NCBI GenBank assembly: GCA_965220565.1 | Contig: CBDCQG010000001.1 | Coordinates: forward strand, 691,473-755,472 | Direction of reading: 5' to 3' | Length of the DNA: 64,000 nucleotides | From: Dehalococcoidia bacterium | Lineage (GTDB): Bacteria > Chloroflexota > Dehalococcoidia > UBA6926 | Part shown: in pieces, positions 22,104 to 56,064 of the stretch | Layout of the letters: each line of letters opens with the position of its first letter | Position numbering within the stretch: position 1 is the first letter of the stretch | The notes under the pieces: generated by a model | Told to the model about the DNA's origin: nothing | Database searches by the model: none | Seen by the model: the letters and a program-made list of their open reading frames with translations, nothing else | Program-made: the position numbers and the translations under genes

Positions 22104-22230
22104 GGATCGCTGCTCCCCACCTTAATCCGCCGCTTTGTGCTTCGTAAATGTTAGCACACTGTGCCAAGTTCGGCGTCGCCTCCCTTTCCTTGCCCCCCGT
22201 TTATGCGGCCGCTACCCTAATTCCGAGACG

Positions 22231-25193: not shown

Positions 25194-26231
25194 TCACCTA
25201 CCCTTAGCCGCTCTGAGAGCGTCCATGAATCGGTCGATTTCTTGTGTGCTAGTGAAATAGCCCTTGTAACCGATTGCTTCCGACTGATGGACACCGATCG
25301 TCTTCCCCCAATCCGTGACCGCCTCAGTGCCTTCGACTTCGTCAGGAAGCAGCTGCTCCACTTCATCCACTTCAATTCCAAAGAACTCTTGGATTCGCGT
25401 GGCGTGGACTATGAAGGGCAGGCCGACTTTGTCTCCATCTCGCGCGGCGTCAACCGTCATTAGACGCCGCCACCGGCCATCATCAGCCTTGAGCTCGCAA
25501 ACCACACCCTTGCGGTAGTTCGTGTGGGTGAATATTCCACTCATTCGTTCGCGGAAATGGTCATATACTTCGCCGATACCATTGTCAATGGCCATCTGAC
25601 GGAGCCCCTCGACCGTCTGTGACGCTCGCTTGGAGGTTCTGCGAGCATTTGCCTCCGCGACTTGGGGCTCGACCAAGTAAACTTGCGCAAGCATCCGCTT
25701 GTCGTCTTTATCTACAAATTGTTGGACTGTAGCGACATTTATCGGAACCCCCAAGTCCGCCAAGTACTTCACGATCCGTTCTGTGCCGTCGTCCATAGAT
25801 TCCGCCACAATGAGACTGCGATGGCTTTCATTCAGGACTGCGGGTAATTCTGTTTCGAATCTGGCTTCAAAGGCGGCCTCAAGGGAGTCCCATCCAGGTA
25901 TCTTGTGGCCGGCATTCTTGAGAAGCTGATCGCGCGAAAGCTTGCTGACCCAAGATGCATAGTCCAGAGCTTGGGCTGTGGCGTCCCGCGGTGTTTGCCC
26001 TTTCTTTAGCTCTATTGCGACTGTATTGCCTTCTCTATCGAGACAAAGAAGATCTATGTAACCCCCGTAATCGGTTCGCACCTGTCTTCCAATGACCAAG
26101 AGGTTCCGCTCTAGGAGATCAATGTCGTCAACGAGCCATTGCTCTAAATCGATTTCCAATGGGATCTCGTGTTGAGGTATGGAAACGGGCCGCCCCTCCC
26201 GTATCTCCCAAAGGCGGATTTTCTGGGTCAA
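25194..26231 (-). CDS. NucS/RecB-like PD-(D/E)xK nuclease domain protein (N-terminal nuclease core, C-terminal domain of unknown function)
   Basis: GYIDLLCLDREGNTVAIELKKG followed by QALDYASW is the D...D/E.K + QxxxY pattern of RecB/NucS-type nucleases. The remaining approximately 230 aa are unrecognised. Confidence 0.5.
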   Translation of the reverse strand: MTQKIRLWEIREGRPVSIPQHEIPLEIDLEQWLVDDIDLLERNLLVIGRQVRTDYGGYIDLLCLDREGNTVAIELKKGQTPRDATAQALDYASWVSKLSRDQLLKNAGHKIPGWDSLEAAFEARFETELPAVLNESHRSLIVAESMDDGTERIVKYLADLGVPINVATVQQFVDKDDKRMLAQVYLVEPQVAEANARRTSKRASQTVEGLRQMAIDNGIGEVYDHFRERMSGIFTHTNYRKGVVCELKADDGRWRRLMTVDAARDGDKVGLPFIVHATRIQEFFGIEVDEVEQLLPDEVEGTEAVTDWGKTIGVHQSEAIGYKGYFTSTQEIDRFMDALRAAKGR

Positions 26232-29440: not shown

Positions 29441-30592
29441 CTAGACGCCAAGCGGTCGTCGGGCGTGTTCCAGATGTCCGACGTGGTGGCTTTCCTCATC
29501 GCATAGCTGAGTGGAGCGTTCGAGCTGCACGGTTACGTGGTCAATGCCATATCTTTGCTTGACAATGTCCTGCATCTGCTGAAGAAGTTCCTGATCGGAG
29601 CCCGGGTGCTCAGGTTCGATGAGCACGTGCGCGGTGAGCACCTCGTTGCCGGACGTAATCGTCCACACGTGCACGTCATGAATGACGGTCACCCCCGGCA
29701 GTTCTTCGATATCGGAGCAGAGTTTGTAAACGTCGATGTGCTCCGGCACTCCTTCCAGCAGCACGCGGAAGACCTGCATCACCAGGCTCCATGAGCTATA
29801 GAGAATGAGGAGGCCGATGACCACGCTGAGGATGGGGTCGATCAGCGTCCAGCCCGTCAGGATGATGACGATGCCTGAAATGACGACACCCACGGAACCC
29901 ATCAGGTCTGCCAGCACGTGCTGGAATGCGCCCTCCACGTTGATGCTGTGGCCGGATGAGCGGTGGAGAATCCATGCGGCGACAATGTTGACCAACAGAC
30001 CGCCGATACCGACGAGCAGAACCGGCCAGCCGTCCACATGGTGTTCGTCACGGATGAATCTGTGGTACGCCTCCCAGAAGATCCACCCGACGATCAGCCA
30101 CAGCGCCAGGGCGTTCATCAACGCCGCGAGTATCTCCGTTCGGTAGTAGCCGTACGTGCGCTCGATGGTGGCGCCGCGCTCCGCGATCCACATGGCGAAC
30201 AGCGCCATGCCGATTGCCGCGGCGTCCGTGAGCATGTGCCCGGCATCCGCGATGAGCGCCAGGCTTCCTGAAACGACGCCCCCGATAACCTCCGCGACCA
30301 TATAGGTCGAGATGAGGATCAGCGCAAAGAAGAGATTGCGGCGGCTTGCTCCCCGGAGATCGTGGGCGTGATCGTGGCCCGCGTGGCCGTGTCCATGGTC
30401 ATCATGGTCGTGGTCGTCGTGGCCGTCATGATCGTGGCCATCGTGGGTGTCATGGTCGTGGTCATCATGGGCGTCATGGTCGTGGTCATCATGGGCGTCA
30501 TGGTCGTGGTCATCATGAGCGTCATGATCATGATCTGCGTGTCGATGGTCTTCCTGGTCACTGCGAGCCATGGCGCTTCCGTCCCCTCTCAC
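29441..30592 (-). CDS. Cation diffusion facilitator (CDF) family metal efflux transporter with long His/Asp-rich N-terminal tail
   Basis: It has the CDF TM core (IADAGHMLTD, HVWTITSG) and the C-terminal cytoplasmic domain. The N-terminus carries about 60 aa of (H-D-D-H-D-H-D-A)n. Confidence 0.85.
   Translation of the reverse strand: MRGDGSAMARSDQEDHRHADHDHDAHDDHDHDAHDDHDHDAHDDHDHDTHDGHDHDGHDDHDHDDHGHGHAGHDHAHDLRGASRRNLFFALILISTYMVAEVIGGVVSGSLALIADAGHMLTDAAAIGMALFAMWIAERGATIERTYGYYRTEILAALMNALALWLIVGWIFWEAYHRFIRDEHHVDGWPVLLVGIGGLLVNIVAAWILHRSSGHSINVEGAFQHVLADLMGSVGVVISGIVIILTGWTLIDPILSVVIGLLILYSSWSLVMQVFRVLLEGVPEHIDVYKLCSDIEELPGVTVIHDVHVWTITSGNEVLTAHVLIEPEHPGSDQELLQQMQDIVKQRYGIDHVTVQLERSTQLCDEESHHVGHLEHARRPLGV
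30355..30540. repeat. 24-bp tandem repeat within the CDF gene (catggtcgtggtcatcatgggcgt x3 plus degenerate copies) encoding the HDDHDHDA repeats
   Basis: There are three perfect copies at 30451-30522, with decayed copies on both sides. Confidence 0.8.
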
Positions 30593-30714
30593 AGGACATC
30601 ACGTCCGCACTATAGGATCAACTATGTGTTCCGGAGTCTCTGCCTGGCCGTCCGGCAGCCATTGAACCGGATAGAAAACTCCGTGGCGCTCTGCTGGCGT
30701 GATTGGTCGGGTTG

Positions 30715-30762
30715 AGCCCCCGGGCCAAAAAACGAATAGCCACCGGAATCGGCGGCTATTCA
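30715..30762 (-). terminator. Rho-independent terminator downstream of the small His/Cys-rich peptide gene
   Basis: On the minus strand the hairpin GAATAGCCGCCG-attc-CGGTGGCTATTC is followed by GTTTTTTGG. Confidence 0.6.
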
Positions 30763-30780
30763 CTCAGTCGGCGGATGAAA

Positions 30781-30909
30781 CTAGCTGCCGTCCGCGTGGT
30801 GCTCGTGTTCATCGCACTCGTGCGGGTCATGCACGTGATTCGGCTCGTCTGCATGGTGCTCGTGCTCGTCGCACTCATGCTGATCGTGCTGATGTGCTGC
30901 GCTCGTCAT
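30781..30909 (-). CDS. 42-aa His/Cys/Glu-rich putative metal-binding peptide (internal duplication HECDEHEHHAD x2)
   Basis: The ATG at 30909 has a GGGAGG RBS 7 nt upstream. The product is MTSAAHQHDQHECDEHEHHADEPNHVHDPHECDEHEHHADGS. The gene has its own terminator. The ORF track's 108-aa version extends upstream without a plausible RBS. Confidence 0.6.
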   Translation of the reverse strand: MTSAAHQHDQHECDEHEHHADEPNHVHDPHECDEHEHHADGS

Positions 30910-31100
30910 CGCAACCTCCCATTTCCTTACGGCTGTCGGTTGTTCTGAATCCACTCTGTGCACGATGTAGATATGTGGCAAGGGTTTCGTGATACAAAGT
31001 ATCGCAATAGTCACTGACTGATATGAGGTATCCATAGGACAACCGAGGTTGCCGCAGGCCCCGCAAAGGGCGCGGCCCAGCCTGACTCCCCGCCCCCGTC

Positions 31101-31140
31101 CGCTCACCCTGAGCCTGTCGAAGGGCGAACGGACGGGCAG
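31101..31140. repeat. Interspersed repeat, family C (CTCACCCTGAGCCTGTCGAAGGGCGAACGG-like), intergenic
   Basis: cgctcaccctgagcctgtcgaagggcgaacggacgggcag. It resembles the widespread 'SLSKGE' type of small interspersed element. Confidence 0.5.
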
Positions 31141-31160
31141 GTTTTCTTACGGCTCTCCCG

Positions 31161-32072
31161 CTATGTCCGCGAGAGGCTTTGGACGTATTCCCGCACTGAC
31201 GCGGCGCACTCCTCAGGTCTCTCGAAGATCATGAAGTGGGAAGCTTCGGGCATGAAATCGTAGTTGATGCTGAGGATGTCGCTGAGGTCCATCGTCGGCA
31301 GATACGAGTAGGGCAGAGTGGGGTCGGCTCCCACCACCTTGACCGGACACACGATCTTGTCAAAGTCCACGGACACGGCGAAAACACCGGCATACTCAAC
31401 AACCTGCGCCTCATACTCGCGGGGGCACCGAAGTTCAAAGCCCTGTCCGTCGGCGGACTCGCCAAGAGTGGTCTCGGCCACGAGGGATGCGATTCCCGGG
31501 ACGACATTCTTGAATGTCGGCATAAACGGCAGCACGTCCGCAAAATCGGAACGCGTCTTGTATCGCTCAGTGCGCGTCCTGGTCAGATTGGCGGCGCGAG
31601 TCGCGGCAACCTCAAATTCTTCGTAGGACACACCCGGCCTGCAGACTGGCGGGTCGAACAGGTAGAGGCCGGATAGTCCATCCCCTCTTTGAGCGGATAG
31701 CAGGGCGACCAGCGCCGAGATGGAGTGGAAAACGCCAAAAGTAGGCTTGTCTCCATACTCCTCACGGATCGCGTCCAGCACCCGATCGTAATCACGGATG
31801 AACGTTGGGAGGTTGTGATTTGCAATGTCGCCCACGCTGTTCCAGCCATGATTTCTCAGGTCGTAGATGATGATGTCAAAGTCGTCCAGCAGGTTTGACC
31901 AGAACGGATAGTACAGGTCGATGGCCAGGCCGTTGCCATGGCACAGAATGAGTCGCGGCCCCTGGGGGTTGCCATGGCGTCTCAGCCGGATGACTGTGTT
32001 CTCATCGACCGTCACGTCATGGACGGACGTCGGCTCAGGAACCTGCCAGACAGGCTGGGGCGTTTCGGTCAC
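31161..32072 (-). CDS. Alpha/beta hydrolase (candidate chain-release thioesterase/hydrolase of the PKS operon)
   Basis: It has an HGNG oxyanion region and a GxSxG-like nucleophile elbow (VFHSISALV). 303 aa. It overlaps the PPTase gene by 4 nt. Confidence 0.65.
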   Translation of the reverse strand: MTETPQPVWQVPEPTSVHDVTVDENTVIRLRRHGNPQGPRLILCHGNGLAIDLYYPFWSNLLDDFDIIIYDLRNHGWNSVGDIANHNLPTFIRDYDRVLDAIREEYGDKPTFGVFHSISALVALLSAQRGDGLSGLYLFDPPVCRPGVSYEEFEVAATRAANLTRTRTERYKTRSDFADVLPFMPTFKNVVPGIASLVAETTLGESADGQGFELRCPREYEAQVVEYAGVFAVSVDFDKIVCPVKVVGADPTLPYSYLPTMDLSDILSINYDFMPEASHFMIFERPEECAASVREYVQSLSRT

Positions 32073-32866
32073 GCGAGCGCGTCCTCAATCCGGGACGACG
32101 GCACCGCTTCAATGGCGAGCGCGCCGACGAAATCGCCGGCGCTGAACCTGTGCAGCCGCCAGCACACATCCGGGAACTCCGGCAGTCGGACCTGGCCGGT
32201 GACTGCGCCTCCGCGCATGGCGGCCGGTGTTTCTATGCACTGCAGGTTCGCGGAGAGACCGATGCCGGTGGCCTTGATGATTGCCTCCTTGAGGGTCCAT
32301 ATCTCAAAGAATGCTCGTGCGTCAAAGTCTCTGTCCGTGCTTGAAACCGCAGCCTGCTCCTTCGTACTGAAAGTCGATTCGATGATTGCATCAAATCGGA
32401 ATTCCTGGTTGATCTCTTCGATATCGATGCCAACCTGGTGATCCGGCGAAATGGCTAGGACGCCATGGTCGCCGCTATGACTCACATTAAAGTGGAGCGG
32501 TGCGGGGACCCCGTCGACGTATGCCCGCGGCTTGCCTCGTTCCACCCAGCCAAACTCAAGCTCCTCATTGTCGCAGTTGAGAGTGTCGCAGAGAACCGCT
32601 CGCAGCGCGGCGCGGCTGAGCGCAAAACGCCGCCTCGGAGCCCCGGGGTGATAGCGTGTCCATCGTTCGCGTTCCCAGTCGTTCAGGAACTGCAAAGCCC
32701 CGGACTCTCGCGCCGCGTCCGGCGACAGATCGACATGAGTAACATCGACGCCGTCAAACTGCGCGAAGCAAGACCACCACTGATTGGCTGTGTTGGTGCC
32801 CATCGCTTCAATTGTATGCGGATAATTGCGATTCGGACTAATTGACGCCAAGAGGGAGCAGCCCAT
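32069..32866 (-). CDS. Sfp-type 4'-phosphopantetheinyl transferase
   Basis: It has the FNVSHSGDHGVLAIS and GIDIEEI motifs. 265 aa as called, so the start is uncertain. Confidence 0.75.
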   Translation of the reverse strand: MGCSLLASISPNRNYPHTIEAMGTNTANQWWSCFAQFDGVDVTHVDLSPDAARESGALQFLNDWERERWTRYHPGAPRRRFALSRAALRAVLCDTLNCDNEELEFGWVERGKPRAYVDGVPAPLHFNVSHSGDHGVLAISPDHQVGIDIEEINQEFRFDAIIESTFSTKEQAAVSSTDRDFDARAFFEIWTLKEAIIKATGIGLSANLQCIETPAAMRGGAVTGQVRLPEFPDVCWRLHRFSAGDFVGALAIEAVPSSRIEDALA

Positions 32867-32933
32867 GACTGCTCCCTCTCGCTTTGGCGCCCTTATTTCA
32901 AGTGGCCGCTTCTTGAAAGTGTGGGTGCGTGAA

Positions 32934-33179
32934 TCACGCAGCCTTCGATTCGATATAACCGATCAGATCGCCGACATTGGAGAAATTAGCGAAATCTTCA
33001 GGCGCAAGTGTGATGTTGAATTCGTCAGCCACGAGCTTGGCGAACGCAACCACCTGTGCCGACGCGACACCCGCGTCCGCAAAATTCAGTCCCATATCGA
33101 CGGGGCTGTTGGCTTCGCGCCCCTCGATCTCCAGGTTCTCGTCAATCAGCTTGCGAACCCTCTCTTCGGTTGTTGCCAT
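32934..33179 (-). CDS. Discrete acyl carrier protein (ACP/PCP-like)
   Basis: The 81-aa product starts from the ATG at 33179 with an AAGGAG RBS 8 nt upstream. It has a four-helix carrier-protein pattern. The region around the expected phosphopantetheine Ser is atypical (LNFADAGVAS). Confidence 0.55.
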   Translation of the reverse strand: MATTEERVRKLIDENLEIEGREANSPVDMGLNFADAGVASAQVVAFAKLVADEFNITLAPEDFANFSNVGDLIGYIESKAA

Positions 33180-33240
33180 TTTCAGGCTCCTTTCTCGTAA
33201 GCGAATCGCGACCAATTCTCATCCAATCGTTACGTAGAGT

Positions 33241-36200
33241 TTATCGTTTTACGGCTTTCTTCTCCACCCAGAACCGTCGACGCTGGAACGGGTAGCCGGG
33301 CAGCCTGATCTTTCGTCGTTCCTCCCCGGTGAATAGCCTGCTGAAGTCCACGTCATGCCCCGCCTCATAGGCCCGGGCCATGGCGTCCACCGTGCCAGAA
33401 TCCGTGTCGCCTGTGCTATCCACTGCCGCTGACTCGCTATCCCGGGTACCCGTTTCCTGTCCGGTGTCACCGGACGGAGAACCGGCATCCACAAGGCGTT
33501 CGAGGCCGCTCCGCAGCTCGTCTTGGTCTCTGAAAATCACGCACGCACGATGTGTAAAGTGACTTCGGCCGATGGACGCCGTCCACGCCATGTCTGCGAG
33601 CATGTCCGCAGTTGAGGCGCCGTCTTGGCCGCCATTGTCCAGCCACTCCAGGTAACTCGCTGCGAGGTCGCTCAGCGCGGCAGGATTCTTTGCCGAAAGG
33701 GGCAGAAGGCGTGCCGGCGGCTTTGTGGTCGCTTGCAGGTCGTCGGGGTTCAAACCGTTCTCAGCCGTGTAGCCTTCCACAATGACGTGCGCATTCGCGC
33801 CCGTCATGCCAAAGGTATTGATCCCGGCAATAGGGGCACGCGCGCCGTTGCCCGGCCACTCCTCCGCGTCCAGGGCAATCTGCAAAGGCATCTTCTTCCA
33901 ATCAATCTCCGGGCTTGGCGTGCTGAAATGGAGATGCCTGGGGATGAGATTGCGATTCATGGACAGCACGACCTTGATGAGGCTGGCCATGCCGGAGGCC
34001 GCTTCAAGGTGACCCACGTTCGTCTTGACTGATCCAAGGGTCAGCGGTTGGTCGCCGGGCCTGTCCTTCCCGTACACGTTTGCAATGGCATTCGCCTCAA
34101 TCGAATCGCCAAGTGGCGTCCCGGTCCCGTGAGCCTCAAGGTAATCAACGTCGGACGCAGAGATGCCGGACCTCTCCAGCGCCTCTCGCATAACCTTTTC
34201 CTGCGCCACGCCATTGGGGCTCGTGAAACTGAATCCCGCGCCATTCTGGTTGACTGCGGAACCCCGTACGACGCCCCAGATGCGATCCCCGTCTCTCTCC
34301 GCGTCGCCAAGCCGCTTGAGTATGACGAAACCGCAACCCTCGCCGCGCACGTAACCGTCGCCGGACGCGTCGAAGCTCGCCGTCTTGCCGCTCAGAGACA
34401 GCACGCCCAATTCCGCAAGGAACGTTGACGTTGACTGCGACAGCGCGATGTTCACGCCTCCCGCCAGGGCAAGATCAACCTCTCCGCGCTGCAGGGAGAC
34501 CACGCCCTGGTGCACTGCGGCGAGCGATGACGTGCAGGCAAGGTCGATCGGCACGGCAGGCCCTTGCAGCCCGAACGTGAACGCGATCCGGCCGACGGCC
34601 ATGCTTGGAATGGTTCCAAAGATGTCCTGGCCGCCGTTCATGGCAAGCACACTGCGGTACTCGCTGCCGCTGATGCCGGCATAGACGCCGGTTTGGCTTC
34701 CGCGCAATGCGTCCGGGTCGATCCCCGCATCCTCCAGCGCCTGCCACGCTGTTTCGAGGAGTAGGCGCTGCTGCGGGTCCATGGTGCGGGCCTCGATAGG
34801 CGCAATGCGGAAGAATCGGGCGTCGAATTCGTCAATATGATCCAGGAACGCGCCAAGACGCTCATAGGTGTTCTGCGCGGCGGGATCCCCAAAAACGCCC
34901 CTGTAGTCGCCGCCGTCCGTGCGCCCGTCCGTAACGGCGGACTCGCCGTTCTCAAGCAGACGCCAGAAGGCATCGAGGTTCTCTGACCCCGGGAAACGAC
35001 AGGCCATGCCGACGATGGCGATCGCATCGTCACCCGGACGCGGGCGCGGAGGCGACTCCGGCGTCCGCTCGTCTGCGGCGGCAACAGTTGTCGTGCTGCC
35101 GGCAGCCGCCCCCGGTTCACCGACTTCCTCGGCCAGATAAACTGCCAGCCGCGTGATGCTTGGGTAGTCAAAGACCACGGTGTTGGGCGCGACATAGAGA
35201 CCTTTGAGAGCGCTGTTGATGTTGTTCCTCAAAGCCACCGCCATGAGTGAGTCCATGCCAAGATCGGAGAACTCTGCTCCCGGGTTTGGTTGGGAGGGCA
35301 TGCGCATGATCGCCTGCAATTCATGCTGCAGAAACTCGGTAAACACGCTTTCGCGCTGCTCCAACGGCACGCCGCTGAGGCGGGCAGGCAAGTCATCCAT
35401 GGAGTCACCCGCCGAGGCAGAATCAGACTCGTCGGCAGCCGTGAATCTCTGCAGCATCGCCGGCGGATTCTGCATGTTTGACCGTATTGATTCCCAGTCG
35501 ATGGCGACGGCAACCGAATTGGTCCAGTCCTGCTTGATCAGGAACTCCAGCGTTTCAATGCCGCGTTCCGGCGTGATCCACCGGGAGCCTCTCTCTGCAA
35601 GCAGCTCGCCGATCCTCTCCCGCTGCTCCTCTGCCTCGCCAACCTCCGACCATGCGCCCCACGCGATCGCCTGGCCGGTCAGCCCCAGAGCCCGGCGATG
35701 TCGAACCAACTGGTCAAGGAATGTGTTGGCCGCGGCGTGATTCGACTGCCCCGGGTTCCCGAGGATTCCCGCCGCGCTTGAGAAAAGCACAAAGAGATCG
35801 AGGTCTCGATCCATCGTGGCGCGATGCAGATGCCATGCGCCCAAAACCTTTGGCCGGAGAATCTGCTCGAATCGCTCCCACGTTTGATTGCCGACCACGC
35901 CGTCCGAAAGCACACCAACGCTATGGATGACACCCGCGAGCGGCGGCAGTGATTGGTCGATACGCGTGAGCATTGCGTCGATTGCAGTGCTGTCCGTCAC
36001 GTCTGCAATCTCAACCTGTACGGTGACGCCGCGGGCGCGCAACTCGTCTATCGCATCCTGCGCTTCCGGGTCAGGATCACGCCGGCCGTTGAGCACGATT
36101 GCTCCTGCGCCCTTGTCCGCGAGCCAGCGCGCGACGGTGATGCCAATTCCGCCCAGTCCGCCGGTGATGAGGTATGTGCCGTCTTCTCGCAGGCGTTCAG

Positions 36201-39200
36201 TCTGGAGAGGAGAGTTGGCCAGCGCGATCTTGCCGATGTGCCGGGTATCGCGCATGTACGTGATTGCAGCCGGTGCCTCAGACAATGACCAGCGGGTGTG
36301 CGGGATGGGGGCGAGTGTGCCTGCCTCCATGTCCCGCAGCACCGTCTTCAGTGCCGCGCCGGGTATTTCCGGCTCTTCTCTCTTCAGCCGATCGAGCATG
36401 ATGATGTGGTAATCGACGTCGGGACGCTGTTCGGCCATCTCCTCTTCGGTCAGGATGCCCTCGCGGGCCAACTCGATGAAGCGGCCATTCTGCGCCAGGC
36501 AGGACAGGCTGGCGTCGATGAATCCCTCGCCGGTCAGGCTGTTGAGTACGACGTCGACGCCTTTGCCGCCGGTGTCGCGGAGTATCTCTTCCGCAAACTC
36601 TGTCGAGCGGCTGTTGTAGACGTGCGTGATTCCGAGTGACCTGAGGTACGGCTGCTTGCCGATGCTTGCCGTCGTATAGATCTCCGCGCCTACAGCCTTC
36701 GCCATCTCGATGGCTGCCAGACCCACGCCCCCGGAACCCGCGTGGATGAGCACCGTGTCGCCGGCCTGTAGACGCGCGAGGTCATAGGAAAGGGCGACGG
36801 TCACGAATGCGGTTGGTGCGGAGCCAAGACCCGTCTTCGATATGTTGGGCGGGGCGGAAGCGACAAGTGCCTCCTTGGTGATGATCTCCGGCCCAAACGT
36901 GCTGAACCCGATCCCGGCGACGCGATCCCCAACGGAGACGGAAGAAACGCCATCTCCGATTTCAATGATCTTGCCGACAAATTCCAGTCCGAGGTTGTCT
37001 TCACGTTCGATGCCAATGCTGATGAGCACGTCACGGAAATTGACGCCCACGGCCTCCATTGCGACACGAACCTCATGTGTTTCCAGTTCACGATGTGACT
37101 CAGGCTGCGGATGGACACGGCCGGGGTCGCCTGTTTCATCCGGCATAAGGAACCATTGGCCTTCGTCGGGCAGGGTGAGCCTTTCCGGTACATCGTCTGT
37201 GCGCGCCAACCGGGCAACCAGTCGATAGCCTGATCGGAGCGCGATGTGATTTTCGCCATCGGGCCGCAGCAGTTCATCAACAAGGTCGGCCAGGCGCGGG
37301 CTGTCGCCATCCAGGTCAACAACCTTGGGCTGAAGATCCGCAAGTTCCCTGATGATGACTCTGCCAAATCCCCAGAGGATCGCGCCGGCGGGCTGCGTGA
37401 ACTGCTCCCGTCGGGTGTCTTGCGCGCCTCGTGTCACAAGCCAGGCGCCGCTCTTTGGTTCCGAATTAGAGTCCAGGAGGCCCTGAACCATGGCCAGCGC
37501 GCTCGAACCAACTCGCCGGATGTCATCAGCGAGCCCGTCGGCGTCGATGTCTGACCCGTTCCCGCTCGTGGCAGCCAGGTGGACAACTCCTCGCAGCGGA
37601 ACGTCCTCTGGCAGACTCGCAAAGATCGATCCCCACGCCTCGCGGTCTCCCCTGTCAACGGCTATGCGTGAAACACCGTCAACGGAGCCATCCTCATGTG
37701 GCGCGCCTGCGCCTTTCTCGGTCACAACCAGGACGAGTTGGCTCCGAGACGCCAGTTCAGCCGCCAACTCGTCGGCCATGCCGTCGTCATCCGCGGCGAG
37801 CACCCAGGAACCCGGCTGCTCGACGATCTCGGCAGGGGCAGCGGCGATGATGACGGCGCGGTCAGGACGCTCCGACGAGTCACTCGTCCTGAGGCCGAGA
37901 ACCTGCGGGTCCTCAAAGGCCGTGTCCAGCAGCGCCTGTTCCCAGACGTCAGCGCCCGCAACACCGTGATTGGGCCGATAATGATCGGCAAATCGCCACC
38001 ACCCGTCCAGCGTTCCGAATGTCACGTCCTGCCATCCCTGGCCCTGGATCGACTCAATCGCGACGAGGTGGCCGGACGGCGCGAGAAGTGTCAGACAGTT
38101 CTGCAGGGTCTCGCTGAGAGAGATGGTGTCATGGAGCACGTTGGAGGCGATGACAAGGTCATAGCCGTGAGCGTCAAATCCCTGCTCGGCGGGATCGAGT
38201 TCGATGTTGAGAGGCATGTACGTTATCGCGCCGTCGGCAGTCCCAAATTGTGACTCCGCCTCCGCGAAGAATCCGGCGGAGATATCCGTGTACACGTACT
38301 CAAACCGGCCCTCAGGAAGCTGCGGCAGCACGGACATCGTGGCTGAGCCCGTGCCCGCTCCCACCTCGACAATGCGCAGTGTTCGCGTCTCGGGCAGATT
38401 CTCCAGCAGCGCGGCAATTGTGTCGCGAAGCATGTTGTTGACTGCGCGGGATGCGGGCGTTCGTATGAAGATGTCGGCGGGTGTAGGATCGCCGCTCCCG
38501 AACAACACCGTCAGCGGATCAGCCTGCCCGCGCAGAATATCCGCCAACTCTCCCGCAGCTCGACGGCACAGCGCCACCTCGATGGAGCCGTGAGGATAAC
38601 GCTCCAGCATCTCTGCGGCGAAGGCGTCCGGGTCAGTCGGCAGTTCACCCGGCAGAGAATCCTCTGGGCCAACCAGAACGTGGAAAGCGTCACCGGATTC
38701 TTGCAGGACGCCCGCCCGCGCAAGCAGCTCAAGGATTCTCCTGAACAGCTTGCTGTGCTCGTCCGTGACGCCCAATTCCCGCCTCAGGGTTTCCGGCTCG
38801 ATAACCGCGCCTGCCGTCTGTTGCCAGCCGAGCTTGGTCAGGGTGTCAAGCGCGAATGACCACGAAAGTCGTTCAAGATCGCGCAAAAGCGCGGTTCGAT
38901 CGCTCCAGTCCACGCCTTCCTGCGACAGATACTCCGCGAACGCCGGTGTAGTGGCCTGGATGGAGGACGGTTCCGGCAGGAAATCGGCGGGCTGCACGGG
39001 AGGCAACGGGCAGTCCTCCCAGACGATGTCGTACAGGAGGTCCTGCACGCTCTCCTCCGTCGAGAGCACGCTATCGCGGCTTGCCCGCTTAGCTGTAAAT
39101 CCTGTGATTCCTCCGAGCCGCTCACCTTCCGTCGAATAGATCTCAAGGTCCGCTGCGATGACCTCCGGCACAGTCCGTGCGCCGGAGGCGTCTGCCTGAT

Positions 39201-42200
39201 TGGCGGCTCTCAAGGTTGCGCGGCAGACAACCCTCTCGGGCAAGCCGCCGCTGAGCCACAATCGGTCCCATGCAAAGGGGAGATATGTCGTGCCGCTTGC
39301 CGTCTCATGCGTGGCGCGAGCCGCCGAAACGACCTGCAAGCATGCGTCAAGCAGGATGGGGTGGACGGCCAGGCCGGTGTTGCTCAGTCCCTCCGGCAAG
39401 CTGACCTCTCCGACTGCCATGCCGTTGCCCGTGAATGCCGAATCCACCGTGCGGAACAGGGGACCGAAGTCCAGGTTTGCCTCGCGCTTTGCCCGGTAGA
39501 ACTCTGAAATATCAAGCGATTCCAGGCCGGCCTTCAGGTCGTCAATGGTCACGCGCTCCGCAGCATCAGTGTTATCTGTTGCCGACGACAGCGTGCCCCG
39601 CGCGTGCAGAGTCCACGATTCCTCGCCGCTTCCCTTGCTGTAGATTTCAAACTCGCGAGCGCCTGAGTCGTCCGGAGCCTGCACCATGATTTGCACGGCG
39701 CGCGCACTATCGTCAGGCGAACTCTCCTCATCGGCCTCGCTGAACAGCAGCGGCGCCTGCATCTGCATGTCGTCGATGACGACTCCGCCGGACTCCTCCG
39801 CCCGGAACGCCTCCACAGCCATGACGCCATAGAGGGCCCCTGGCGCGATAACCCGGCCATACACACGGTGGTCGCTCAGCCAGGCGGGATCGTCTGGCAA
39901 CAACTCAGTCTCGAAATAAATCTCTCCGCGCGGCGATTCATGGCGCGTTCCGAGCAGTGGATGATCCGTTGAGGCTCTCTGCCGACGAGGCTCTTCGACC
40001 CAATGGCGATACCGCTGGAACGGATACTCCGGTACGGGAACCCGTCGCCGCGTCTCACCCGCATAGAGGTCACGGAAATCGATAGAAAGCCCGGCCTCGT
40101 ATGCAGCCTTAACCGCGGAGATGAAACCGCGAGTCTGGTCGATTGGCGGCTCGGTTTCATCGTGCGGCGGCCTGACCATGCTGGCAATAACCGGGGGGTC
40201 CTTGGCCGGAGCGCCCGGCGGCCAGCACATGGAGACAATCGCCCCAATGACTGCGCCCGGCCCGATCTCGATGACAAAATCGACTCCAAGTTCTGCCAGC
40301 GATTCAACGCTGGTTCGATACAGGACCTTCTCCCGTGAATGACGCATCCAATAGGCGGCATCGATGGGGACATCCGGATCAACCGGCTTGCCCGTCGCGC
40401 CGCAAATGAACTCGATCTGCGGTGCTCTAGGCTCCTTGACAATTTCACGGACTCTCTCCCCGAGCGGTTCGAGCATCGGCTCCAGCAGACTGCTATGGAA
40501 TGCCGGGCTGGGCGGCATACGCCTAACCCGAACTTCCTTAGCCTCGAATTTCTCGAGGACTGCCTCAACATCCGGTTCAGGCCCGCTGACGACGTGGTTG
40601 ATGCCGTTGTCAACGGCAATCGTCAGCCGGTTGTCGCCGGAGACCTGCTGTTGTTCCGCGATGGCCTCCTGCACGGCGGCCTCTGGAGCGAATACCACGC
40701 CCATTGCCGCACCAAGCGGGAGTCCGCTCATCAACTCTCCGCGCGCAGCAGTGAGGCGGATACCCTCTTCCAGGGTGAACACGCCGGCTGCTTGCGCCGC
40801 CGCGTATTCTCCGAGGCTGTGACCGGCGACCACGGCGGGCGTGACGCCGATGCTCTTCCAGAGGGCAGTGAGCGCGCACTCCACCGCGTAGATAGTGGGC
40901 ATGGCCCATCTCGAATCATCGAGGTCATCTGCCTTGCCGAACATGACATCGAGCAGGGAGACCCCGCGCTCTTTTTTGATGATGCGATCACAGCGGTCGA
41001 GCACGTCTCGCGCAACAGGCTCCGTCTCGTAGAGCGCTTGCGCCATACCCACCCACTGGCTGCCCTGTCCGGTGTAGACAAATCCGATCCTGGCGGGGCT
41101 GCCGACGGGAGATTGAGGAGTCGATTCAATAAGGTTGCTGAGGCCATCCCTCAGTGAGGCGGCTTCGCGGAACGGGATAGCGGCCCGGTAACGGAAATGG
41201 CTGCGGCCGATGCTTGCGGTCCAGGACATATCAGATAGGGCAGGGTCGGATGCCGCAGTCTCCGGAGGCGGGCCTCCCGATGTTTCGTCCAGCGCATTGA
41301 GGTAACGCTCTGCCAGTTCTTGCAGGCTCTCCGGCGACCGTGCGGAAAGCGGCAGCAATCGTGTCGGGCGCTGTGTGACATCCGCAGTGTCGTCAGAAAG
41401 TTGGGTCTCCACCTCGACAGCGGCGCCCACTGGCCACATCGTTGCTGCGCGTGATGCCGGTGCGCTGGCGGGCGCGCCGTACCCCTCGACGATGATGTGC
41501 GCGTTCGTGCCCGACCATCCGAAACCGCTGACACCGGCGCGTGGCGGCCTGCCATCAACTTTCGGCCACTCGGTTGCCTCGGTCGGCACGCGCAGATTGG
41601 CGTTCTCCCAGTCGATCGCCGTTGTGGGGTTCTCAAAATTCAGGTGCTTGGGGATGACGCCGCGCCGCATTCCCAGCACGACCTTCATGACGCCCGCGGC
41701 TCCCGACGCAGGTTCAAGGTGCCCGAAATTCGTCTTGACGGAGCCGATGAACATTGGTTGATCGGCCGGTCGCTGATTTCCATATGCGGCGGTGGCTGCG
41801 CTCAACTCCGCCGGGTCGCCCACCGGCGTGGCGGTTCCGTGCGCCTCCAGGTAGTCCACGTCCACCGGTGTAAGGCCGGCCGAGGACAGCGCATCGCGGA
41901 TGACATTCTCTTGTGACGACGCGCTCGGCACGGTGATGCCCTGGCTCGCGCCGTCCTGGTTGATGGCGGAGCCGCGGATCACACCCCAGATGCGGTCGCC
42001 GTCCCGCTCGGCGTCGCTCAGGCGCTTGAGAACAAGAACCCCGCAGCCCTCGCCGCGGAGGTAGCCGTCCGCGGCCTCGTCAAAGGTGCGGCACACGCCG
42101 TTCGGCGACAGCATCCCTGCTTGCCTGCGCAGATTCATGACCCTCGCGGAAAGGATGGCGTTGACGCCTCCGGCCAGGGCCAGGTTCGCCTCTCCGCGAT

Positions 42201-42813
42201 TCAGGGCGATTACAGCCTGGTGCATGGCAACCAGGGACGATGAGCACGCTGTATCTATGGAAATCGCGGGTCCTTCAAGTCCCAGCGCGTATGACACGCG
42301 GCCAATGGCGGTGTTGAGACTGCTTCCGCTGGCCGCATAGAGGCTGGTGGCAGGATCGTCCGCTTCAATGGACGCGATGGCCGCATACCGGTATTCGGCG
42401 TTGCTTATGCCGCCATAGACGCCGGTGCGCGTTCCCCTGAGACTCTCCGGATCGATGCCCGCGTCTTCAAGGGCACGCCAGCTGGTTTCGAGCATCAGGC
42501 GCTGCTGCGGGTCCAGCAGCTGCGCCTCTACCGGTGAGATTCTGAAGAATTCCGCATCGAACTTGTCGATATCCTCAATGAAAGCCGCGTAGTGCGTGGT
42601 GTCGCTCTGCGTCGGTGGAAGTTCCAGGAACTGACCCATGCGGCCGGGGCTGCCGGAGCCGATCATGCCCTCCGTCCGCACCATCGTCCCGGAGGCCAGC
42701 AAACGCCAGTAAGCGTCGTAGTCCTCGGCTCCGGGAAAGCGGCATGCCATGCCGATGATAGCGATGGGTTCGTTTGCTGCCATACCGCCTCCGAGTTTCA
42801 GGTGGGCTGACAT
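33241..42813 (-). CDS. Type I highly reducing polyketide synthase, 3190 aa: KS-AT-DH-cMT-(psiKR)-ER-KR-ACP-KS(AT-less)
   Basis: KS1 has DTACSSSL / EAHGTAT / NFGHLE. The AT has GHSLGE. The DH has HRVYGRVIAPGA. The C-MT has VEVGAGTGS. The ER has LIHAGSGGVGLAAIEMA. The KR has ITGGLGGIGITVARWL. The ACP has DLGMDSLMAV. KS2 has DLACTSSL / EAHGTGT / NVGHLE. After KS2 come the KS-AT linker and the post-AT YPFQRRRFW linker, but no AT core. Confidence 0.9.
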   Translation of the reverse strand: MSAHLKLGGGMAANEPIAIIGMACRFPGAEDYDAYWRLLASGTMVRTEGMIGSGSPGRMGQFLELPPTQSDTTHYAAFIEDIDKFDAEFFRISPVEAQLLDPQQRLMLETSWRALEDAGIDPESLRGTRTGVYGGISNAEYRYAAIASIEADDPATSLYAASGSSLNTAIGRVSYALGLEGPAISIDTACSSSLVAMHQAVIALNRGEANLALAGGVNAILSARVMNLRRQAGMLSPNGVCRTFDEAADGYLRGEGCGVLVLKRLSDAERDGDRIWGVIRGSAINQDGASQGITVPSASSQENVIRDALSSAGLTPVDVDYLEAHGTATPVGDPAELSAATAAYGNQRPADQPMFIGSVKTNFGHLEPASGAAGVMKVVLGMRRGVIPKHLNFENPTTAIDWENANLRVPTEATEWPKVDGRPPRAGVSGFGWSGTNAHIIVEGYGAPASAPASRAATMWPVGAAVEVETQLSDDTADVTQRPTRLLPLSARSPESLQELAERYLNALDETSGGPPPETAASDPALSDMSWTASIGRSHFRYRAAIPFREAASLRDGLSNLIESTPQSPVGSPARIGFVYTGQGSQWVGMAQALYETEPVARDVLDRCDRIIKKERGVSLLDVMFGKADDLDDSRWAMPTIYAVECALTALWKSIGVTPAVVAGHSLGEYAAAQAAGVFTLEEGIRLTAARGELMSGLPLGAAMGVVFAPEAAVQEAIAEQQQVSGDNRLTIAVDNGINHVVSGPEPDVEAVLEKFEAKEVRVRRMPPSPAFHSSLLEPMLEPLGERVREIVKEPRAPQIEFICGATGKPVDPDVPIDAAYWMRHSREKVLYRTSVESLAELGVDFVIEIGPGAVIGAIVSMCWPPGAPAKDPPVIASMVRPPHDETEPPIDQTRGFISAVKAAYEAGLSIDFRDLYAGETRRRVPVPEYPFQRYRHWVEEPRRQRASTDHPLLGTRHESPRGEIYFETELLPDDPAWLSDHRVYGRVIAPGALYGVMAVEAFRAEESGGVVIDDMQMQAPLLFSEADEESSPDDSARAVQIMVQAPDDSGAREFEIYSKGSGEESWTLHARGTLSSATDNTDAAERVTIDDLKAGLESLDISEFYRAKREANLDFGPLFRTVDSAFTGNGMAVGEVSLPEGLSNTGLAVHPILLDACLQVVSAARATHETASGTTYLPFAWDRLWLSGGLPERVVCRATLRAANQADASGARTVPEVIAADLEIYSTEGERLGGITGFTAKRASRDSVLSTEESVQDLLYDIVWEDCPLPPVQPADFLPEPSSIQATTPAFAEYLSQEGVDWSDRTALLRDLERLSWSFALDTLTKLGWQQTAGAVIEPETLRRELGVTDEHSKLFRRILELLARAGVLQESGDAFHVLVGPEDSLPGELPTDPDAFAAEMLERYPHGSIEVALCRRAAGELADILRGQADPLTVLFGSGDPTPADIFIRTPASRAVNNMLRDTIAALLENLPETRTLRIVEVGAGTGSATMSVLPQLPEGRFEYVYTDISAGFFAEAESQFGTADGAITYMPLNIELDPAEQGFDAHGYDLVIASNVLHDTISLSETLQNCLTLLAPSGHLVAIESIQGQGWQDVTFGTLDGWWRFADHYRPNHGVAGADVWEQALLDTAFEDPQVLGLRTSDSSERPDRAVIIAAAPAEIVEQPGSWVLAADDDGMADELAAELASRSQLVLVVTEKGAGAPHEDGSVDGVSRIAVDRGDREAWGSIFASLPEDVPLRGVVHLAATSGNGSDIDADGLADDIRRVGSSALAMVQGLLDSNSEPKSGAWLVTRGAQDTRREQFTQPAGAILWGFGRVIIRELADLQPKVVDLDGDSPRLADLVDELLRPDGENHIALRSGYRLVARLARTDDVPERLTLPDEGQWFLMPDETGDPGRVHPQPESHRELETHEVRVAMEAVGVNFRDVLISIGIEREDNLGLEFVGKIIEIGDGVSSVSVGDRVAGIGFSTFGPEIITKEALVASAPPNISKTGLGSAPTAFVTVALSYDLARLQAGDTVLIHAGSGGVGLAAIEMAKAVGAEIYTTASIGKQPYLRSLGITHVYNSRSTEFAEEILRDTGGKGVDVVLNSLTGEGFIDASLSCLAQNGRFIELAREGILTEEEMAEQRPDVDYHIIMLDRLKREEPEIPGAALKTVLRDMEAGTLAPIPHTRWSLSEAPAAITYMRDTRHIGKIALANSPLQTERLREDGTYLITGGLGGIGITVARWLADKGAGAIVLNGRRDPDPEAQDAIDELRARGVTVQVEIADVTDSTAIDAMLTRIDQSLPPLAGVIHSVGVLSDGVVGNQTWERFEQILRPKVLGAWHLHRATMDRDLDLFVLFSSAAGILGNPGQSNHAAANTFLDQLVRHRRALGLTGQAIAWGAWSEVGEAEEQRERIGELLAERGSRWITPERGIETLEFLIKQDWTNSVAVAIDWESIRSNMQNPPAMLQRFTAADESDSASAGDSMDDLPARLSGVPLEQRESVFTEFLQHELQAIMRMPSQPNPGAEFSDLGMDSLMAVALRNNINSALKGLYVAPNTVVFDYPSITRLAVYLAEEVGEPGAAAGSTTTVAAADERTPESPPRPRPGDDAIAIVGMACRFPGSENLDAFWRLLENGESAVTDGRTDGGDYRGVFGDPAAQNTYERLGAFLDHIDEFDARFFRIAPIEARTMDPQQRLLLETAWQALEDAGIDPDALRGSQTGVYAGISGSEYRSVLAMNGGQDIFGTIPSMAVGRIAFTFGLQGPAVPIDLACTSSLAAVHQGVVSLQRGEVDLALAGGVNIALSQSTSTFLAELGVLSLSGKTASFDASGDGYVRGEGCGFVILKRLGDAERDGDRIWGVVRGSAVNQNGAGFSFTSPNGVAQEKVMREALERSGISASDVDYLEAHGTGTPLGDSIEANAIANVYGKDRPGDQPLTLGSVKTNVGHLEAASGMASLIKVVLSMNRNLIPRHLHFSTPSPEIDWKKMPLQIALDAEEWPGNGARAPIAGINTFGMTGANAHVIVEGYTAENGLNPDDLQATTKPPARLLPLSAKNPAALSDLAASYLEWLDNGGQDGASTADMLADMAWTASIGRSHFTHRACVIFRDQDELRSGLERLVDAGSPSGDTGQETGTRDSESAAVDSTGDTDSGTVDAMARAYEAGHDVDFSRLFTGEERRKIRLPGYPFQRRRFWVEKKAVKR

Positions 42814-42887: not shown

Positions 42888-44504
42888 TTGACCGGCCGGC
42901 TTAGCTACAGTTGGGGACTACTCCGCGGCGATGTTCTTGGCGGCCTGACCTCCGGCAGCATCGTTCTTCCTGCGGCAATAGGCTACGGCGTGATCTCCGG
43001 GCTTGGCCCCGTTGCGGGTCTGTACGGCGCGGTGGCTGTCAGCTTCTTCGGAGCCATCTTTGGCGGAACACGGGGCATGATCTCCGGCCCGAACATCCTG
43101 GTGACGCTGACGATGGCAGTGACCGTATCGCATTACGCGACGAGCCTCGGCGAAGCATTTCTCGCCGCGATCCTGGCGGGGCTCATCCAGATCGGTTTCG
43201 GCGCTCTGAAGATCGGCCGGTACGTGTCCTACATTCCATACTCGCTTATCGCGGGTTTCTTCACGGCCTTCGGCATCATATTGATCCTGAAGCAGTTCCT
43301 GCTTGGGCTTGGCGCATCAGTGGCCGGCAGCGCCCTGGACAACATCCGCGCATTGCCGGATGCGTTTAGAGAGCCCAACGTGGAAGCCGTTATCGTCACC
43401 GTCCTCAGTGTTGCGCTGGGGGTAGCGTGGCGAGGAAGGCTCCTGAAGATCGCTCCCTCCCAATTCGCCGTGTTGGTTTGCGGAACCGTCACGGCGATTC
43501 TCCTCTTCCAGGGAGCGCCGACGATCGGAGAGATCCCCCGAGAACTCCCCGCGCCGCAACTGCCCGCGCCTGACGTGGACACGCTTCTGCGGATTGCCCA
43601 GCCCGCCTTTGCCATGGCGCTGCTCAGTTCCCTGTCCACGCTCATCGTCGCGCTGCCCCTGGACACCATTACCGGCACGCAGCACAAACCAAACAGGGAA
43701 TTGATTGCTCAAGGCATGGGCAATATCGGCGCGGGACTCATCGGCGGCTTGCCGGGCGGCGTATCCTCCGGCACGTTCGCCGGCGCCTTCAGCGGGGCGC
43801 GAACCCAGGTAGCCGGGCTGACCGTCACGGTACTCATCATCTCCATCATCTTCGTCCTTGGGCCGATTGCGGAGCGCATTCCTCTTGCCGTCCTTGCGGG
43901 CATCCTCATCATCAACGGCTGGAGCATCATCGATTGGCGATTCATCAAGCGGCTGCATCGCGTGCCCGTCGACTACACAATCGTCATGGCCCTGACCTGC
44001 CTCCTTGTGCTCTTTGTGGACATCACTCTCGCCGTGTTTGTTGGCTTTGTCGTGTCATCCCTGGCCGGCGCGCGGCGACGTGGAGAACTGGAAACCCAGG
44101 ACCTCATCTCAATCCCGGTCCTTGACAGCGTGCTGCTTGACGGCGACGAGGCAGACCCGTTTGAGGCGCGCGCCGGCATCGTCATCTTCCCAGATCGCGT
44201 CACGGTGGCCTCAACCCGTGAGGTGAGCCGCATCGTCCGCTCCGACATCCTTGGGCATCAGATCGTCATCTTCGATATGTCCCGCACGTACTTCATTGAC
44301 GATTCCGCGGCCGTGGCGATAGGGGACCTGATCAGGATTGCGGCCGTTCGCCGGCCGGGACGTGTTGTCATCACGGGATTGACGAGGCCGGTCACGGAAA
44401 CCCTCGATGCGTTCGGCCTGCGCGCTGCGATGCCGGACGGGTTGATTATTCCGGACATGGACGCCGCGAGAGCCAGGGTGCGCGACCTGCTGACGAGCAA
44501 GTAA
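42888..44504 (+). CDS. SulP family anion (sulfate/bicarbonate) permease with C-terminal STAS domain
   Basis: It has the SulP TM core (GMISGPN...) and a STAS domain at the C-terminus. It is divergent from the PKS gene. Confidence 0.75.
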   Translation: MTGRLSYSWGLLRGDVLGGLTSGSIVLPAAIGYGVISGLGPVAGLYGAVAVSFFGAIFGGTRGMISGPNILVTLTMAVTVSHYATSLGEAFLAAILAGLIQIGFGALKIGRYVSYIPYSLIAGFFTAFGIILILKQFLLGLGASVAGSALDNIRALPDAFREPNVEAVIVTVLSVALGVAWRGRLLKIAPSQFAVLVCGTVTAILLFQGAPTIGEIPRELPAPQLPAPDVDTLLRIAQPAFAMALLSSLSTLIVALPLDTITGTQHKPNRELIAQGMGNIGAGLIGGLPGGVSSGTFAGAFSGARTQVAGLTVTVLIISIIFVLGPIAERIPLAVLAGILIINGWSIIDWRFIKRLHRVPVDYTIVMALTCLLVLFVDITLAVFVGFVVSSLAGARRRGELETQDLISIPVLDSVLLDGDEADPFEARAGIVIFPDRVTVASTREVSRIVRSDILGHQIVIFDMSRTYFIDDSAAVAIGDLIRIAAVRRPGRVVITGLTRPVTETLDAFGLRAAMPDGLIIPDMDAARARVRDLLTSK

Positions 44505-55885: not shown

Positions 55886-56064
55886 GTGGCCATTATAGGC
55901 TCCCCGGTCACTCTTCCTAAATGCAGTAGAGAATCCGGTGATTTCATACTTGCGGCTCCGCTTGTGACGCTTGACACAAATTCGGCCAGACAGATAGACT
56001 CGCACTGTCGCGGCTGCGACCCAACGTTAACTGTTGAGGTATTGCTCTGAACAGGCTCAAGCGC

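Follow-up and report, generated by a model that had tools for sequence, protein, structure and literature searches.

The sponge symbiont ubiquitous polyketide synthase (sup) is an unusually small, mono-modular polyketide synthase (PKS) of sponge symbionts that dominates the ketosynthase (KS) amplicons of high-microbial-abundance sponges; in one study, more than 99% of the KS amplicons were of the sup type. Mid-chain methyl-branched fatty acids have been proposed as its products. The cluster was first ascribed to Poribacteria, an assignment that was later questioned, and it is known across many phyla in such sponges. In Fieseler et al. (2007), SupA is reported to be composed of KS, acyltransferase (AT), dehydratase (DH), methyltransferase (MT), enoylreductase (ER), ketoreductase (KR), acyl carrier protein (ACP) and a second KS, followed by genes for an ACP, a 4'-phosphopantetheinyl transferase (PPTase) and a hydrolase. 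Here we describe a type I PKS gene that is SupA-like by architecture, and the loss of the AT that once stood beside its second KS, in a 64,000-nucleotide stretch of a Dehalococcoidia genome (contig CBDCQG010000001.1, positions 691,473 to 755,472; hereafter the window). The gene is a single open reading frame (ORF) of 9.57 kb and 3190 residues, located at 33241..42813 on the minus strand according to the ORF call and Pfam. Its locus is a probable member of the sup clusters, so that the cluster type is probably already known, which an earlier sequence-only reading of the window had missed.

The likeness to sup is found in the architecture, the gene content and the motifs. The window PKS is a small, fatty acid synthase (FAS)-like and essentially mono-modular type I enzyme with an MT domain, in the order KS-AT-DH-MT-ER-KR-ACP. 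Its first and second KS (KS1 and KS2) contain DPQQRL with HGTAT and DPQQRL with HGTGT, respectively, and its AT (AT1) contains YTGQGSQW and LGEYAAA, fitting the primer motifs of the sup PCR surveys, i.e. DPQQR and HGTGT in the KS and sites near FPGQGSQW and QGEIAAA in the AT (PMC3908369 among the sources). A SulP-family permease gene adjoins the PKS and is of the same kind as SupE, which is listed as a permease in Table 1 of PMC3908369, the comparison being one of kind. The window family is also distributed over several phyla, as is sup. The host is different, being a member of Dehalococcoidia instead of the Poribacteria to which sup was first ascribed.

The terminal KS resembles the KS units of trans-AT PKSs, such as KS2 of bacillaene PksJ (4NA1) and the MgsE/MgsF KS (4QYR/4TKT), in which the KS and a KS-AT linker domain (LD) without AT are followed by a C-terminal stretch returning to the KS; the sequence alignment of these to our KS2 is also full length. 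The window cluster differs from trans-AT systems in having no discrete trans-AT gene, as seen in the 64 kb and in eight sampled contexts, and in carrying an active cis AT in the same polypeptide. Moreover, KS2 is nearer to the KS of cis-AT KS-AT didomains (38-42% identity) than to trans-AT KS (30-36%), it has KS1 of this cis-AT family as its sister clade, and the absence of its AT is a recent state, reached repeatedly from an ancestor with a cis AT. The terminal KS has converged on the architecture of a trans-AT KS unit while standing outside the trans-AT family.

PKSs like mycocerosic acid synthase (MAS) and animal FAS share with the window enzyme the order KS-AT-DH-(MT position)-ER-KR-ACP, and an iterative mode and fully reduced products are presumed for both. 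MAS is the best solved match for the window KR (174 bits) and a strong match for the KS. However, MAS introduces its branches from methylmalonyl-CoA, whereas the window enzyme has a malonyl-type AT and an MT domain dependent on S-adenosylmethionine (SAM); MAS also lacks a second KS, and the window KR has His in place of Tyr. Other KS domains without an AT of their own, or at odd positions of an assembly line, are the non-elongating KS0 of trans-AT systems, which lacks the His of HGTGT, and KSQ and chain length factor (CLF), which lack the active-site Cys. KS2 differs from all of them in keeping Cys2760, which is invariant in our alignment, as well as His2895 and His2935. Finally, the swf cluster (SwfA-C, a sponge-widespread FAS-like PKS) shares the ecological niche and a mono-modular KS-AT-DH-ER-KR-ACP enzyme, but SwfA lacks both an MT and a second KS, and the genes after it encode reductase/sulfotransferase and radical SAM proteins (PMC3908369), none of which is present at the window cluster.

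The terminal KS and the decay of its AT

The window enzyme is arranged as KS1-LD-AT1-DH-cMT-ER-KR-ACP1-KS2-LD-(spacer)-post-AT linker, where cMT denotes the C-methyltransferase. The Pfam limits are residues 15-445 for the first KS, which is followed by a linker, 578-861 for the AT, then DH, MT, ER and KR, 2496-2559 for the ACP and 2600-2963 for the second KS. Past the latter, KAsynt_C_assoc and CurL-like/RhiE-like linker matches are found at residues 3036-3109, and no second Acyl_transf_1 match is found by Pfam in the 3190 residues. KS2, delimited by Pfam and BLASTP, comprises residues 2600-3025 (33739..35016; this and all parts of the PKS below are on the minus strand). The LD of this module (LD2, residues 3026-3111, 33481..33738) matches CurL-like_PKS_C and RhiE-like_linker in Pfam and is predicted to fold as beta-alpha-alpha-beta-alpha, with the elements at positions 446-520 of the KS2 fragment modelled by AlphaFold2. 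At the former AT site there is a low-complexity spacer of about 25 residues (approximately residues 3112-3136, 33406..33480), where the alignment with AT1 and with the dead remnants in relatives is gapped and the predicted local confidence (pLDDT) is below 50. The protein then closes with the post-AT linker (residues 3137-3190, 33244..33405), which was assigned by BLASTP and alignment; it includes YPFQRRRFW, 8 residues before the protein end, and a predicted helix at positions 548-561 of the fragment.

The sequence-only reading had proposed a terminal KS without AT that retains both linkers, repeating the KS1 region, and this is borne out in its essentials. Residues 2595-3190 consist of a KS followed by its KS-AT linker domain and, with no AT between them, the post-AT linker. 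When residues 1-950 are compared with residues 2590-3190 by BLASTP, the identity is 49% over 562 residues (E=0), with a separate match of 55 residues (47%) between both post-AT linkers, and approximately 320 residues of the module-1 AT have no counterpart in the C-terminal region. The supposed active-site residues of KS2 are retained as Cys2760 (LACTSS), His2895 (EAHGTGT) and His2935 (NVGHLE), and Lys2930 is present as well. All three quoted motif pairs are found in the repeat, but its length is about 596 residues (nt 33244-35031) and not about 800; the interval flagged earlier opens with ~220 residues of KR tail and ACP1, which are outside the repeat. The quoted linker motifs, LLPLSAK, TA..GRSHF.HR and YPFQRxRxW, do not indicate a specific duplication, being generic to the linkers of cis-AT PKSs including CurL. 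As to the suggested duplication of module 1 with the AT excised, a KS-AT duplicate from which the AT was removed does seem to be involved, but the history appears to be ancient and of several steps, with the AT dead before its excision, and not a single local event.

We surveyed the AT region in the best 120 KS2 homologues together with the window KS2, reading the motif state from alignment columns. Twenty-two are AT-less as in the window, 57 have an AT region, and the remainder are cut off by contig ends. Among the 57 AT-bearing matches, 52 have another residue, mostly Gly (GQGVGE, GHGLGE and similar), in place of the nucleophilic Ser of GHSxG, and four of the five Ser-intact ATs are attached to KS1-type domains. 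All KS2-type AT remnants lack the small subdomain and the His of xAFH, and their Pfam match covers profile positions 2-134 of 319. AT1 of the window (residues 576-880, 40174..41088), which is malonyl-type by its Pfam match and motifs, has both GHSLGE (Ser666) and PAFHS (His773). The insert between the linker domain and the post-AT helix measures 320-344 residues in active ATs, 237-272 in dead KS2-type remnants and 18-39 in AT-less proteins, the window insert being 36; lengths between these three classes do not occur in the survey.

The nearest outgroup of the family, P0310, is a three-module PKS of 5547 residues with ATs at 558-860, 2449-2745 and 4257-4560. Its AT1 is intact (GHSVGE, HAFHS), while the ATs of modules 2 and 3 are of full length but have GHGVGE and no xAFH. 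The ATs of the family thus seem to form a graded series from live through full-length dead and shrunken dead to cleanly excised, and the AT was apparently not cut from a live copy, its excision coming after its death. AT-less tips are scattered in the KS2 clade beside remnant-bearing tips, with different breakpoints; for example, the AT-less P0011 and P0006 group with the AT-bearing P0036. A Dollo (no-regain) count on a neighbour-joining (NJ) tree gives 12 AT deletions (11-14 in 100 bootstraps), two of them outside the KS2 clade. We found no description of such graded AT decay and repeated AT deletion in the accessible sup papers.

An NJ tree was built from 112 family KS domains with 207 generic PKS KS domains as the outgroup. 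The outgroup pool of 727 KS domains was obtained by searching a representative library with KS1, a search that placed giant multimodular PKSs at the top, the bit scores there being summed over domains. KS1 (residues 15-445, 41479..42771), identified by Pfam and alignment and carrying the active-site motif DTACSSS, belongs to a KS1-type clade with 98% bootstrap, and KS2 to a KS2-type clade with 99%. Each clade spans many genomes, and the two are sisters at 74%. The AT remnants of KS2-type relatives match the AT1 of the family best, with 50-68% identity over the first ~125 residues and with scores exceeding those against any AT in 150 generic PKSs. Because KS1 and KS2 form sister clades and the AT remnants are closest to the family AT1, the comparison supports the view that KS2 would be the product of an ancient duplication of a KS-AT pair at the root of the family. 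We consider it very probable that the anatomy and the evolutionary history are as read here, including that the AT of KS2 lost its catalytic Ser and small subdomain early in the history of the family and that the remnant was deleted entirely in the window lineage.

Function of the terminal KS and competing explanations

The selective constraint on KS2 was estimated as the ratio of nonsynonymous to synonymous substitution rates (dN/dS) per domain, between the window and close relatives. KS2 gives 0.07-0.12, the same as KS1, AT1, ER and KR, and the values are 0.15-0.34 for the linker domain and 0.13-0.44 for the post-AT linker. The spacer at the old AT site has 0.4-0.6, with amino-acid identity down to 8-30%. 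Across 20 AT-less homologues the Cys (alignment position C171), the Lys and the second His (His2935, H346) of KS2 are invariant and the first His (His2895, H306) is nearly so, and the Cys/His/Lys/His set is intact in all orthologues examined. KS2 therefore appears, as far as sequence can tell, to be a conserved and condensation-competent enzyme.

The AlphaFold2 model of residues 2590-3190, with a mean pLDDT of 70, shows a KS, the beta-alpha-alpha-beta-alpha LD, a disordered spacer and a returning helix. In Foldseek, the KS2-LD model matches the trans-AT KS-linker structures 4NA1, 4TKT and 4QYR over both full lengths with TM scores of 0.72-0.75, whereas the match to cis-AT KS-AT didomains is confined to their KS-LD half. 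The post-AT linker would thereby pack back on KS2 in spite of the missing AT.

We propose the following route for the synthase. Module 1 (KS1-AT1-DH-cMT-ER-KR-ACP1) would be a complete reducing module, presumably iterative, that assembles an acyl chain with methyl branches; intact catalytic or cofactor motifs are found in DH, MT, ER, AT and ACP, including the SAM motif VEVGAGTGS of the cMT. ACP1 (residues 2496-2559, 35137..35328, identified by Pfam and carrying LGMDSL) is the presumed chain donor to KS2. Together with the discrete ACP encoded right after the PKS, KS2 would constitute a split minimal elongation module, which accepts the completed chain of ACP1 and extends it by one C2 unit. AT1 would malonylate the discrete ACP as well as ACP1, the housekeeping FabD being less likely; the cluster's own PPTase would activate both carrier proteins, and the co-encoded serine hydrolase would release the product. 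We hold this mechanism, in which AT1 loads the discrete ACP, KS2 condenses once and the hydrolase releases, only tentatively, at odds slightly short of even. The overall explanation, in which it is blended with the anatomy and history given above, has in our estimate a probability of about 0.6.

Of the two functional options offered by the sequence-only reading, AT1 acting in trans seems to fit better than a non-elongating KS2, because the Cys/His/His/Lys residues are kept and KS2 is under purifying selection. Exactly one AT, the first, keeps both Ser and His in the window, in L016 and L017, in the 12 Dehalococcoidia orthologues and in P0310. It is conceivable, at longer odds than the mechanism itself, that the lineage is a cis-AT synthase caught turning trans-AT-like, in which one intact N-terminal AT serves every KS/ACP pair while the redundant ATs decay. 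Under such a scheme, the AT would have been excised to a loop of 18-39 residues at least ten independent times, always sparing the linker domain and the post-AT linker.

KS2 could also elongate a chain if the malonyl group of the discrete ACP came not from AT1 but from the housekeeping FabD or from a discrete trans-AT elsewhere in the genome, which we regard as unlikely. The best NCBIfam matches of the discrete ACP are AcpP-type carrier proteins, which are FabD substrates, and our AT search, in which tblastn of AT1 found no second AT in the window and AT1 is the only one there, spans only 64 kb of the genome. However, in all eight contexts sampled the cluster is found without an AT gene, and the single intact first AT shared by the window, its orthologues and P0310 fits a shared cis AT.

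We are more doubtful of a non-elongating KS2, i.e. a chain-length gate or transacylase by which the completed acyl chain is moved from ACP1 onto the discrete ACP and thence to lipid assembly, with no AT needed and hence its decay. In the whole clade this module has either a dead AT or none, as would be expected if there were no extender to load; KS2 is not followed by reducing domains, and the discrete ACP is similar to the type II ACPs of fatty-acid synthesis. Nevertheless, the Cys, both His and the Lys are kept at a dN/dS of about 0.1, whereas the known non-elongating KS of trans-AT systems have lost the HGTGT His. In addition, modules 2 and 3 of P0310 have the same dead AT and yet carry DH-KR-ACP and must elongate, so that a dead AT does not imply the absence of extension in this lineage. 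We also rejected a beta-branching cassette based on HMG-CoA synthase (HMGS), with neither HMGS nor enoyl-CoA hydratase (ECH) genes in the operon, as well as a KS/CLF pair of the polyunsaturated fatty acid type and a loading KSQ, with Cys2760 retained.

As for the origin of KS2, it might be young, a copy of the KS-linker part of module 1 having arisen within the gene and lost its AT core either at once or in the next step. KS1 and KS2 do align end to end with both linkers included, and their similarity is elevated, as the sequence-only reading had supposed: the identity of 53% in the KS core is within the top 0.5% and is reached by only 0.4-0.6% of 684 generic KS domains (from 150 diverse modular PKSs), the median identity of which is 42% to KS1 and 41% to KS2. 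Nonetheless, KS2 has 55-65% identity to the KS2 domains of other phyla and only 49.6% (532 bits) to its own KS1. At the DNA level KS1 and KS2 are 65% identical with a longest common exact word of 19 nt, and their third codon positions are 48% identical at identical residues, near saturation. The two clades each span many genomes, and relatives keep a dead AT, so that the loss was stepwise. The recent form of a local duplication is thus very improbable and is already refuted by these comparisons. Least credible is the reading of KS2 as what is left of a lost second module, without function and in decay, which the decayed and deleted AT and the near-neutral spacer might evoke and which is excluded by the selection data, KS2 being constrained like the essential domains, with the catalytic residues intact in all orthologues, a partner ACP with its Ser always adjacent, and neither frameshifts nor active-site loss seen in the 12 orthologues.

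Several points weigh against the explanation that we prefer. The sister grouping of KS1 and KS2 has only 74% bootstrap, and the NJ trees come from one alignment. That AT1 loads the discrete ACP is purely inferred, and the AT search covered 64 kb of a contig of ~1.6 Mb, so that a FabD or discrete trans-AT may exist elsewhere. A non-reduced 3-oxoacyl product is only one possibility; chains on the discrete ACP might also be processed by the reducing domains. In one locus, L017 (10001-12745 with flanks), KS2 with a dead AT has no adjacent ACP, PPTase or hydrolase gene. The membership in sup, which we call probable, is based on architecture, context, ecology and the reported organisation of SupA. 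Lastly, the chemistry of reduction in module 1 is made uncertain by the KR, which has His in place of the catalytic Tyr.

This KR (residues 2212-2390, 35644..36180) was identified by Pfam and aligned to the KRs of MAS and AmphB, where His2359 (GQSNHAAAN; window 35737-35739) falls at the catalytic Tyr of short-chain dehydrogenases/reductases. None of the orthologues examined (L001-L018 and six database proteins) has any residue but His here, and the domain is under strong constraint, with a dN/dS of 0.04-0.09. Of the KRs of P0310, two have His and one has Tyr. A literature search for KR Tyr-to-His variants gave nothing relevant, and the family-wide substitution could be a further unrecognised catalytic variant.

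Neighbouring genes, relatives and surroundings

The gene directly 3' of the PKS encodes the discrete ACP of 81 residues (32934..33179, minus strand), as had been expected from the sequence and as is confirmed by a Pfam PP-binding match. Its probable start is the ATG at 33179, with the Shine-Dalgarno sequence AAAGGAG. The Ser of GVAS aligns with the phosphopantetheine-bearing Ser and does not vary among 17 orthologues. In the orthologous loci compared, the gene always comes directly after KS2. The PPTase gene (32069..32866, minus strand) encodes an Sfp/HetI-type enzyme, matching ACPS and AASDHPPT_N in Pfam and, weakly and below the cutoff, HetI in NCBIfam; it is conserved in L001, L015, L016, L018 and L020. 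The stop of the PPTase gene overlaps by 4 nt with the gene of an alpha/beta hydrolase of 303 residues (31161..32072, minus strand; Pfam Abhydrolase_6), the proposed releasing enzyme. It has conserved motifs of the Ser/Asp/His type (HGNG, FHS[IV]S, GADP and A[ST]HF). Among solved proteins, monoglyceride lipases are the nearest to it (E=5e-7), and it lies within the cluster in L001, L015, L016, L019 and L020. A scan of 30500-33400 for promoters and terminators gave nothing above chance.

Upstream of the PKS and divergent from it is the SulP-family permease gene (42888..44504, plus strand; Pfam Sulfate_transp and STAS). Permeases adjoin the cluster in L001, L015, L016, L018 and L020. None of the best 120 permease homologues is named SupE, all being unnamed or plain 'SulP family'.

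Orthologues with the identical domain order are found among the loci L001-L020. The closest are from Dehalococcoidia metagenome-assembled genomes (MAGs), including SB0661_bin_39, and 12 of these (L002-L013) have an uninterrupted orthologous PKS that likewise ends in an AT-less KS2. The set consisting of a PKS ending in KS2, the ACP directly after it, PPTase, hydrolase and permease recurs in the 12 MAGs and in L001, L015, L016, L019 and L020. The latter five are on unrelated contigs, with KS2 domains of 55-60% identity and a partly shuffled gene order. Named KS2 matches come from Dehalococcoidia, Caldilineaceae, Rhodospirillaceae, Gammaproteobacteria, Acidobacteria, Gemmatimonadetes, Latescibacteria and Acidimicrobiia, and further matches are present in the SB0666 and F4Y MAG series, which we take to be sponge-derived. 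Relatives of the hydrolase with 80-94% identity occur in 13 genomes, all labelled as Dehalococcoidia MAGs.

Among L002-L013, the hydrolase is 82-94% identical to that of the window, while the adjoining PKS is only 64-91% identical (64% in L007, L008, L010 and L013). The divergence of the PKS is uneven by domain, e.g. 48-51% in DH versus 79-83% in KS2, which suggests faster evolution or an exchange of PKS parts. In L015, L016, L017 and L001, which are contigs from long-read metagenomes, the orthologous PKS is divided among two to four ORF calls that overlap in different frames, probably through frameshifts of the assembly and not as real splits. The short-read scaffold L019 has two PKS parts with a gap of 20 nt between them. 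In L017 the order is KS-AT-DH-MT-ER-KR-ACP-KS with a dead AT, the next gene being a Na+/H+ exchanger on the other strand, and the partner genes may be elsewhere in that genome.

The window also contains features of separate interest. A large serine recombinase with Recombinase and zinc-ribbon domains (20862-22103, minus strand) and a protein with a NucS C-terminal-like nuclease domain (25194-26231, minus strand) lie 5-10 kb from the cluster and may be remnants of mobile elements. An 827-residue protein with two family III CoA-transferase domains in tandem is encoded at 26333-28816 (minus strand) and an enoyl-CoA hydratase near it at 24276-25163; there is no evidence tying either to the PKS operon. 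A 705-residue ORF at 22135-24252 (plus strand) looks like a fusion, with a tRNA (uracil-5)-methyltransferase-like domain at residues 273-447 and a Maf-like domain at 453-665. ThiS/MoaD-like and MoaE domains in one ORF at 55208-56005 (minus strand) make up a fused molybdopterin synthase.

Implications for the family

Sup-type genes predominate where sponge microbiomes have been surveyed for PKSs. An AT that is dispensable throughout the family, together with a conserved KS2, narrows the biosynthetic model. The repeated clean AT excisions and the family-wide His of the KR are the most interesting leads, and the locus makes a small and clear case study of how AT-less modules evolve. If one N-terminal AT does serve every KS/ACP pair, the family would represent natural experiments on the origin of the AT-less KS-linker units of trans-AT PKSs and on which parts of the linkers are indispensable. 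The graded decay also provides PKS engineers with natural boundaries for removing an AT while the KS remains folded.

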